DNA of 64,000 bases from an uncultured Dehalococcoidaceae bacterium. GTDB lineage: Bacteria; Chloroflexota; Dehalococcoidia; UBA2979. Shown here in pieces: positions 35,978-36,243 of this stretch (the first letter of the stretch is position 1; every line of letters starts with the position of its first letter). The notes beneath the pieces were generated by a model. That model did not search any database, was not told where the DNA came from, and saw only the letters and a list, made by a program, of their open reading frames with translations. The position numbers were made by a program, and so were the translations under genes. The stretch lies in assembly GCA_964565075.1 (NCBI GenBank), contig CAZMCK010000005.1, positions 25,270-89,269 on the forward strand, read 5' to 3'.

Positions 35978-36007
35978 TTGACGCTCGCGGGAGGGGGCGC
36001 GGATACT
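35978..36007 (+). promoter_or_regulatory. candidate sigma-70-type promoter TTGACG-18nt-GATACT upstream of the ilvB leader
   Basis: Sequence motifs read directly. TTGACG at 35978-35983, GATACT at 36002-36007. Confidence 0.4.
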
Positions 36008-36015
36008 GTTCCACC

Positions 36016-36114
36016 ATGATGAGGGCTGCACTCCCCACGACCTCCACGCCCATCAGGCGCTCCGCGCTCGCCGCGTCCCTGCGCCTGCTCGTCCTCGTTC
36101 TCGTACTGCGCTAG
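36016..36114 (+). CDS. ilvB leader peptide (32 aa, MMRAALPTTSTPIRRSALAASLRLLVLVLVLR)
   Basis: Short ORF 130 nt upstream of ilvB. It ends in a run of 7 Leu and 3 Val codons (LRLLVLVLVL). A perfect 11-bp hairpin (36114-36142) and a second hairpin (36161-36180) follow immediately. Confidence 0.5.
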   Translation: MMRAALPTTSTPIRRSALAASLRLLVLVLVLR

Positions 36115-36180
36115 GCGGCGCTGCCACGTTCGCAGCGCCGCCACCAAGCCCGCGTGTCGGGCTCGCTTCGTTGCGCGAGC
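36114..36180 (+). promoter_or_regulatory. attenuator hairpins downstream of the ilvB leader peptide
   Basis: GGCGGCGCTGC-cacgttc-GCAGCGCCGCC, a perfect 11-bp stem, followed by GCTCGC-ttcgttgc-GCGAGC. Confidence 0.45.
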
Positions 36181-36243
36181 AACACCACCCATCGATGACC
36201 CACCACTGACCAGCCAGCGGATTCGGAACAGGCAGGACCTCCC

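Follow-up and report, generated by a model that had tools for sequence, protein, structure and literature searches.

Leader-peptide attenuation of the genes for branched-chain amino acid (BCAA) synthesis is textbook knowledge in Proteobacteria, in which the leader peptide of Escherichia coli ilvBN is ivbL, and recent work has confirmed it in Corynebacterium and Mycobacterium. BCAA-rich leader peptides have been described upstream of ilvB in Corynebacterium, Mycobacterium, and Streptomyces (PMC1262725, PMC10272879, PMC11857589, PMC13236596) and also in Staphylococcus (PMC5794164), and leaderless BCAA-rich upstream open reading frames (uORFs) attenuate ilvB in C. glutamicum and M. tuberculosis (PMC11857589, PMC13236596). 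In the actinobacterial model, as represented by M. tuberculosis ilvB1 and C. glutamicum ilvBNC (three-hairpin model; ilvB-II motif), the transcript starts at or within one nucleotide (nt) of the start codon of a short BCAA-rich uORF (PMC13236596, PMC11857589, PMC10272879); a ribosome stalled on the Leu, Val, or Ile codons spares the next hairpin, whereas a ribosome at the stop codon masks the 5' arm of that hairpin (PMC13236596); and a downstream hairpin with a U tract ends a short transcript (PMC13236596, PMC11857589, PMC10272879). Here, we describe, by computational analysis, a leader upstream of ilvB in a 64-kb stretch (64,000 nt, hereafter the window) of contig CAZMCK010000005.1 from an uncultured Dehalococcoidaceae bacterium (Chloroflexota), and these leaderless actinobacterial uORFs are its closest functional analogues. 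The element comprises a small open reading frame (ORF) ending in Leu and Val codons and two adjacent hairpins, H1 and H2, and its sequence and conservation indicate that it is very probably a Leu/Val-sensing leader peptide controlling ilvBNC(-leuA). The parts of the leader, all on the forward strand, are as follows.

35978..35983, + strand: -35 hexamer TTGACG, from a promoter scan; TTGACN at the equivalent position in 56 of 58 non-redundant relatives
36002..36007, + strand: -10 hexamer GATACT, after an 18-nt spacer; its end lies 8 nt before the leader ATG
36016..36114, + strand: leader ORF, 32 codons plus TAG, reading MMRAALPTTSTPIRRSALAASLRLLVLVLVLR and the stop
36085..36108, + strand: regulatory run LLVLVLVL, CTG CTC GTC CTC GTT CTC GTA CTG, then CGC (Arg) and TAG
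36114..36142, + strand: hairpin H1, GGCGGCGCTGC (36114-36124), loop CACGTTC, GCAGCGCCGCC (36132-36142)
36147..36163, + strand: hairpin H2, AGCCCG, loop CGTGT, CGGGCT; terminator-like, 4 nt past H1
36164..36175, + strand: tail CGCTTCGTTGCG, weakly U-enriched after H2; the presumed termination or pause point
36161..36180, + strand: hairpin GCTCGC (36161-36166)/GCGAGC (36175-36180), outside the conserved element
36176..36243, + strand: untranslated tract, C-rich and G-poor, reaching the ilvB start

The leader ORF starts 228 nt upstream of the ilvB ATG at 36244, and the original prediction, which had been made from the sequence of the same stretch and placed a 32-codon ORF about 230 nt before ilvB, was thereby borne out (36016-36114). 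The last eleven sense codons of the ORF read L R L L V L V L V L R. The prediction had counted ten consecutive end-product codons with Leu x7, but this was a miscount, as LRLLVLVLVL includes an Arg and holds 6 Leu and 3 Val; the run without interruption is LLVLVLVL, with 8 codons, 5 for Leu and 3 for Val. A search of all six frames of the whole 64-kb window indicated no longer Leu/Val run. Two of the three Val codons in the run of the window are rare ones, with GTT and GTA accounting for 5.1% and 5.7%, respectively, of the Val codons in the window genes, and attenuation theory expects rare "hungry" codons (PMC1183508). The TAG codon was considered as an unusual stop and rejected, being the commonest stop in the window (28 of 45 long ORFs).

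Relatives of the leader were collected by an IlvB protein search of GTDB species genomes and by a DNA-pattern scan of metagenome contigs, which added about 39 further loci, and the removal of duplicates left 58 sequences from metagenome-assembled genomes (MAGs) of Chloroflexota/Dehalococcoidia and from metagenome contigs. The metagenome pattern contained CTCGTACT...TAGGCGNCG; hence, the statistics on codons and on the H1 base were derived only from the 22 loci retrieved through IlvB. The closest IlvB matches were in MAGs labelled Chloroflexi/Chloroflexota or Dehalococcoidia, with identities from 93% to ~50%, and the GC content of the window is 71%. A small ORF ending in ...L(L/V)VLVL-x-TAG was present ~105-260 nt before ilvB at every locus having upstream sequence among L001-L019, L022, and L023, including L018 and L023, whose upstream regions have 38-39% GC. 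The conserved LV-rich peptide before ilvB of relatives, to which the original prediction had pointed as a means of checking, is present across this set, in which ilvB identity to the window ranges from 93% down to ~70%, and the metagenome loci have ilvB downstream wherever the sequence is long enough. The leader ORFs of the relatives have 26-36 codons, with a variable N-terminal part rich in S, T, A, and P and a conserved C-terminal end, ...VLVL-x-stop, and the family follows a spacing rule by which one non-Leu/Val codon stands between the run and TAG and the stop lies inside the H1 base. In the last four Val/Leu codons, the first two positions are nearly invariant in the relatives. Furthermore, at the loci retrieved through IlvB, codon -3 was GTA in 20 of 22 and codon -2 was CTT in 14 of 22, compared with a background in ilvB of the related loci in which GTA has a median of ~2% of Val codons and CTT ~0% of Leu codons. 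GUA is likewise the marked regulatory codon in M. tuberculosis, within the ilvB1 uORF (PMC13236596).

The promoter-like element TTGACG-18-GATACT, which had also been predicted before the ORF, was confirmed by the promoter scan at 35978-36007, and it was the sole promoter-like match in 35500-36700 (1 found versus 0.1 expected). Among the relatives, TTGACN-16..18-NANACT was found in 56 of 58, ending 6-11 nt (mode 9) before an in-frame ATG. The gap between the -10 hexamer and the ATG is too short to accommodate a Shine-Dalgarno sequence; hence, the leader mRNA is probably leaderless or nearly so, with the transcription start deduced from the position of the promoter. In this, the leader resembles those of M. 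tuberculosis ilvB1 and C. glutamicum ilvBNC, and the C. glutamicum ilvB leader is likewise leaderless (PMC11857589).

H1 is a perfect 11-bp hairpin with a 7-nt loop (-24.3 kcal/mol), and the final base of the TAG stop is the first base of its stem; H1 had been correctly recognized in the original prediction as a hairpin running from the stop codon, at 36114-36142. The base of H1, GGCGRCG/CGYCGCC, is kept in the relatives, whereas the apex is variable, giving an overall length of 24-43 nt, and 5 of the 10 scored pairs have changed on both sides. H2 has the consensus GCCCGCGTGYCGGGC, that is, GCCCGCGUGYCGGGC, with 4 of 7 scored pairs changed on both sides and 95% of cells paired. When H1 and H2 were evaluated together in a 56-sequence alignment, 92% of cells were in standard pairs, compared with 34-54% when the partners were slid by 1-3 columns; 9 of the 17 pairs have changed on both sides, and the observed covariation score was reached by 0 of 500 shuffles. 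In the window, 36109-36176 folds into exactly H1 and H2, with 199 of 200 dinucleotide shuffles folding less well (z = -2.78), and the entire 241-nt leader is not unusually structured compared with shuffles (z = -0.88). The spacer between H1 and H2 is 0-6 nt in all relatives, and H2 begins 32 nt past the stop codon in the window, compared with 25-46 nt across the family.

In relatives, UUUUCGUGU comes after H2, which has the score of an intrinsic terminator in several of them; the tails read UUUUCGUGUCC, UUUUUCGUAUC, or UUCGCAUGC, and the H2 homologues are the only terminator-like matches in the leaders of L017, L013, and L011. In the window, the tail CGCUUCGUUGCG holds 4 U in 10 nt, compared with 14% T across the window, and H2 with this tail fails a simple terminator scan (5-of-8 T rule). 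The second hairpin named in the original prediction, GCTCGC/GCGAGC, does exist in the window, where it shares 3 nt (36161-36163) with the 3' arm of H2, but it has a central mismatch in L001, L002, L087, L090, and L135, of which ilvB is 93-97% identical, and it is absent from L003-L005. It was rejected as a functional part for this lack of conservation, and the prediction had overlooked the conserved hairpin, H2.

A covariance model built on the Leu/Val end, H1, and H2 found one copy in the window, at 78.7 bits with the next best match at 16 bits; there was no second copy in the window and no copy in more distant ilvB loci. The weaker pattern matches L129 and L101 were discarded as chance matches to the DNA search pattern, and the L119 pattern match adjoins an unrelated gene. 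No Rfam family matched at E <= 10 in 35500-36700, where only unrelated sub-threshold matches on the opposite strand appeared, and an Rfam scan of the whole window at the gathering threshold gave nothing but a c-di-AMP riboswitch elsewhere. The actinobacterial ilvB-II and ilvB1 leaders, which belong to Actinomycetota and not to Chloroflexota, are without sequence or Rfam similarity to the window leader, and we found no description of leader-peptide control of ilvB in Chloroflexota in the searchable full-text literature.

Other Chloroflexota clades (L024-L032 and L044) have different, Val-rich leader ORFs at the same place. In L026, L028, and L032, Val codons are followed, about two codons on, by a large hairpin enclosing the stop, and a GC hairpin that has a UUUGCUGUAUCU tail lies 0-2 nt further on. 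This clade has the same plan as the window in unrelated sequence, and this is independent support for the plan. The Val-rich ORFs with GUA in L026, L028, L032, L025, L029, L030, L031, and L044 lie ~90-330 nt before ilvB (locus position 3001), with examples ending in ...LVAVPRGSAPRAGG and ...VPVVVSGGRAFRA before the stop.

Because a Leu/Val ORF with a promoter stands before ilvBNC, is conserved, and has its rare codons fixed, control by Leu/Val-tRNA charging is the best reading of this leader, and it is reasonably probable that the leader acts as a ribosome-mediated attenuator that reports Leu-/Val-tRNA charging to the ilvB-ilvN-ilvC(-leuA...) operon. In the mechanism that we propose, transcription would start at or a few nt before the leader AUG, and a 70S ribosome would translate the leaderless ORF, of which the final codons, LLVLVLVL-R-stop with the rare GUU and GUA, would be the sensor. 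A ribosome waiting on the last Val/Leu codons would halt just short of H1, whereas a ribosome arriving at TAG would unzip the whole 5' arm of H1. H2 and its U-enriched tail would be the site of premature termination or pausing, and we have moderate confidence in termination at H2. When Leu and Val are sufficient, the ORF would be completed, H1 opened, and the ribosome released, and H2, which is 32 nt past the stop and would be out of reach, would halt transcription. When Leu and Val are scarce, the ribosome would be stalled against folded H1, the termination at H2 would be suppressed, and RNA polymerase would enter ilvB.

According to established footprint sizes, a ribosome shields about 12 nt past the first base of the A-site codon. 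If the last Leu codon (36106-36108) occupies the A site, the ribosome would reach to about 36118, 5 nt or less into H1, and there would be no contact from the earlier codons; with the A site on TAG, the whole 5' arm of H1 would be covered, to about 36124. It would follow from this reach that H1 is folded with the stalled ribosome and open after completion of the ORF. The relation between the uORF and the hairpin proposed here is the same as that in the actinobacterial model, and H2 would take the part of the downstream terminating hairpin. However, in the actinobacterial leaders, the hairpin adjacent to the uORF shares bases with the terminator, making the two mutually exclusive, whereas H1 and H2 are separate and are predicted to coexist.

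For the step from H1 to H2, we can suggest a steric coupling without shared bases, although only with low confidence. In E. coli, a terminator must lie more than ~27 nt from a ribosome on the stop codon to escape repression (PMC4824070), and the stop-to-H2 distance in the family matches this requirement. It is conceivable, although unlikely, that the switch operates without competing base pairs, with H1 being a collapsible spacer and, hence, a steric, ribosome-operated antiterminator, in at least two Chloroflexota clades of unrelated sequence. Folded H1 would loop out about 30 nt and bring H2, in space, within a few nt of the stalled ribosome (the 0-6-nt spacer and a few nt more), and the crowded H2 could not seat in the RNA exit channel of the polymerase, resulting in read-through. 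A ribosome at the stop would unzip H1 and restore more than 27 nt of single strand to the terminator, and H2 would then terminate. This would be similar to E. coli pyrBI and to terminators near stop codons, in which a close ribosome blocks terminator folding without an antiterminator RNA. In pyrBI, however, it is low UTP that is sensed, through pausing of the polymerase, and the ORF extends across the terminator, whereas, here, a foldable hairpin would switch the effective distance between the ribosome and the terminator, for which we know of no precedent. As a bolder relative of this idea, by analogy, the adjacent H1 and H2 may modify the polymerase in the manner of the phage HK022 put RNAs.

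Several results weigh against a ribosome-mediated attenuator. When a 31-nt ribosome footprint was set on each of several codons in the 22 relatives and the probability of H2 was predicted, there was no consistent change in H2, and the low-GC leaders of L018 and L023 had H2 at P = 0.95 under every ribosome position. The ORF, the Leu/Val run, and the H1 halves were no more complementary to H2 than random windows of the same contigs were (window p = 0.07-0.81). At equilibrium, H1 and H2 coexist, and nothing found makes termination conditional. The H2 stem of the window has only 6 bp (-8.8 kcal/mol) and is followed by a poor U tract, the tail is C-rich instead of U-rich in many relatives, and every relative comes from an uncultivated MAG or a metagenome contig. 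Moreover, mutation of the candidate ilvB leader codons in Streptomyces coelicolor had no effect, as reported in PMC1262725.

These results bear most directly on the reading given in the original prediction, that of a classical trp-type attenuator with an antiterminator sharing bases with the terminator and with GCTCGC/GCGAGC in the switch, which we now consider improbable. In its parts, among them a leader ORF carrying codons for end products, hairpins, and a U-enriched tail, the element does resemble the ilvB leaders of E. coli and actinobacteria. As in E. coli ivbL (32 codons) and other enterobacterial leaders (trp, leu, his, thr, and ilvGMEDA), the ORF has about 30 codons with a run of end-product codons, and the rare "hungry" codons and premature termination before the first structural gene known from those leaders (PMC1183508) can be likened to the window leader. 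The enterobacterial leaders, however, have an ORF led by a Shine-Dalgarno sequence, at least 4 segments with 1:2/2:3/3:4 pairings, and a strong U tract, and no such alternative pairings were found here: the Leu/Val run of the window is unpaired in the predicted folds, with no protector or pause hairpin (1:2) over the regulatory codons. Pairing of an upstream ORF segment with H2, which had a mean z of about -0.85 against mononucleotide shuffles, was rejected, the effect being gone against the genomic background (window p = 0.4-0.7), and H2 showed no enriched pairing with the Leu/Val run, with the H1 apex, or with the H1 3' arm. The only excess, a weak one, was between the H1 5' half and the H2 5' arm with its loop (window p = 0.07; family median p = 0.2); the duplex of UAGGCGGCGCUG (stop codon and H1 5' arm) with AAGCCCGCGUGU (H2 5' arm and loop) has -13.1 kcal/mol, and a similar duplex recurs in several relatives, which favors a trp-type switch. 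This duplex is nevertheless always outcompeted by H1 (-24 kcal/mol in the window and -18 to -38 in the family), and nothing is placed to sequester the H1 3' arm. A "hairpin 0" in the ORF just before the Leu/Val run, which appears in many minimum free energy folds, was no more stable than random windows of the same contigs (median p = 0.52), and its arms have no consistent relation to H1 or H2; a three-way junction formed by the Leu/Val run and the sequence after H2 was also rejected, the complementarity being depleted (median p = 0.78; window p = 0.98). In the 56-sequence alignment, there were no convincing covarying column pairs beyond H1 and H2. The absence of a consistent loss of H2 with a ribosome on the Leu/Val codons, the lack of conservation of GCTCGC/GCGAGC, and the unchanging H2 of L018 and L023, in which spurious GC pairing is minimal, are likewise points against a trp-type switch. 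As a positive control, the same masking recovered the textbook 1:2/2:3/3:4 arrangement in the deltaproteobacterial (Desulfobacterales-like) loci L063, L067, and L074, of which IlvB is ~48-49% identical to that of the window and which have an Ile/Leu/Val-rich leader ORF at the same position; these differ from the window in being textbook attenuators, in which GGGGUUGAUAAUGGC, at the end of the ORF, has two alternative partners, a segment further upstream in the ORF and the 5' arm of a 13-bp terminator that has U8-9 behind it. Their leaders lie ~115-240 nt before ilvB and encode peptides of the MK..INNLIxLILLLV.. type, and the alternating segment is 14-16 nt. Taken together, the masking, duplex, and covariation scans gave no terminator/antiterminator pairings that exclude each other, and no pairing mutually exclusive with the terminator-like hairpin was found in the window or as a conserved feature, contrary to the "classical architecture" of the original prediction. 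Because such an antiterminator was searched for and not found, the leader is not filed as a classical attenuator, and we conclude that this leader family either has no classical overlapping antiterminator or has one that is invisible to thermodynamic and comparative methods.

Rho-dependent attenuation, which we rank second and regard as rather unlikely, would provide the correct regulatory logic without an antiterminator, consistent with these negative searches. In such a model, the C-rich, G-poor leader would be a Rho loading site, and ribosomes stalled and queued on the Leu/Val run would cover it or block the translocation of Rho, allowing transcription to go on; when the ORF is quickly cleared or untranslated, Rho would load and release a polymerase paused at H1/H2. 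Control of this type, by a leader peptide and Rho, is established in the E. coli tna operon, and mycobacterial cys leaders have been proposed as a further case (PMC1262725). With a C-over-G excess of 0.15, the leader as a whole (36016-36243) ranks in the top 0.3% of windows of equal length on both strands, a bias that is the hallmark of Rho loading sites; the leader ORF RNA is rich in C and poor in G (excess 0.18, top 1.4% of windows), as is 36180-36225 (0.26, top 1.6%), and the tract 36176..36243 could be an unstructured spacer or a Rho loading site. The leader ORFs of the relatives share this bias (median excess 0.17, median top 2% within each locus), and their S/T/A/P-rich, low-complexity peptides fit selection on RNA composition rather than on the peptide, so that the leader RNA appears to be selected for its composition, as unstructured RNA or as a Rho loading site. 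The lack of a U tract after H2 in many relatives also fits Rho, but the U-rich, terminator-scoring H2 tails of several others do not, the stop codon's position, always inside the H1 base, and the constant 0-6 nt between H1 and H2 would be left unexplained, and the low-GC L018 and L023 are without a C-over-G excess. Two further explanations are each very improbable. In translational attenuation, the leader (e.g., its CUCCUC-type Leu/Val codons) would pair with the ribosome-binding site of ilvB, which a stalled ribosome would free; anti-Shine-Dalgarno-like CUCCU strings occur in the Leu/Val runs of many relatives, the GUCCU of the run in the window can pair with AGGAC before the ilvB ATG, and uORF-dependent unmasking of Shine-Dalgarno sites is known in mycobacteria, as cited in PMC13236596. 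However, sequestration of the ilvB ribosome-binding site by the leader was rejected for lack of enrichment, the leader being no more complementary to the ilvB initiation region than random windows of the same loci are (median p = 0.65; window p = 0.55); past H2, sequence complementary to the Leu/Val run is depleted (median p = 0.78), and the conserved H2 and its U-rich tail would be left unexplained. The element might also not be a regulator at all, with a fortuitous ORF or a small hydrophobic peptide beside hairpins that are ordinary intergenic structural or terminator elements, as ORFs and hairpins are abundant in GC-rich DNA and the 241-nt leader as a whole is no more structured than shuffles. 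Against this, the position, the frame, the stop relative to H1, the promoter distance, and the rare codons are conserved over a wide divergence, whereas the N-terminal peptide is not; different Ile/Leu/Val-rich leader ORFs stand at the same place in other lineages; and the covariance model finds a single copy in the window, far above its next match.

The operon that the Leu/Val-sensing attenuator would regulate, with the neighboring genes, is as follows.

36244..37947, + strand: ilvB, acetolactate synthase large subunit (TIGR00118, 699.6 bits), the first regulated gene
37944..38543, + strand: ilvN, small subunit (NF008864, 203 bits), with a GTG start
38582..39574, + strand: ilvC, ketol-acid reductoisomerase (NF004017, 538.6 bits)
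39820-41373: leuA
41417-42871: leuC
44787-45992: leuB
47059-48663: citramalate synthase gene (cimA)

The ORF 5' of the leader, on the opposite strand, encodes an HtrA-like protease. At GTGA (37944-37947), the TGA stop of ilvB overlaps the GTG start of ilvN, an arrangement suggesting that translation of the two acetolactate synthase subunits is coupled. Before leuA, another candidate leader ORF was observed at 39679-39759 on the + strand, reading VRPRRAARERLELLRLALVLMGPSTA and a stop, although where it starts is uncertain. Of the six Leu codons in this ORF, three are rare (CUU twice and CUA), and its TGA stop is within the apex of a hairpin, GGCCCUCC...GGAGGGCC, at 39743-39773. A small ORF with a Leu-rich end and (R/G/Q)PS(A/S/T)A before the stop was also found, mostly ~60-95 nt before leuA, in L001, L002, L004, L005, L009, L014, L016, L093, and L107. 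This candidate is reminiscent of the idea of an actinobacterial LEU element (PMC1262725). A long GC hairpin, GCGGGCGCACC...GGUGCGCCCGC, at 39661-39689 (+ strand) lies 3' of ilvC, without a U tract, over the putative GTG of the leuA leader ORF. Furthermore, at 46834-46959 (+ strand), TTGTTC-18-TACAAT is followed after 6 nt by an ATG at 46873 that opens an ORF reading MTHYAITRTRARRADRPTGPAASIIARG and a stop, with two Ile codons near its end; this is a possible third leaderless leader, a candidate on weak evidence, before the citramalate synthase gene of the Ile pathway. The c-di-AMP riboswitch found in the Rfam scan is of the ydaO/yuaA type and lies at 51523-51658 on the - strand (RF00379, 72.8 bits against a gathering score of 38).

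What is new here would be a kind of leader-peptide attenuator with adjacent, non-overlapping hairpins instead of an overlapping antiterminator, in which the action of H1 on H2 is inferred. If a conventional antiterminator or Rho explains the leader, it would be an ordinary new member of an old class. H1 and H2 do not overlap and yet hold a rigid geometry relative to the regulatory and stop codons in two unrelated clades, and, if the steric antiterminator is true, this would represent a new design principle of attenuation. The two additional candidate leader ORFs before leuA and cimA are in the same cluster and, if true, would mean that the whole pathway is wired alike. The leader also suggests that leaderless leader ORFs are in use in Chloroflexota, the leaderless state being predicted from the promoter position. 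More generally, it provides a well-defined and widely conserved cis-regulatory element for Chloroflexota, a phylum that is known mostly from metagenomes.

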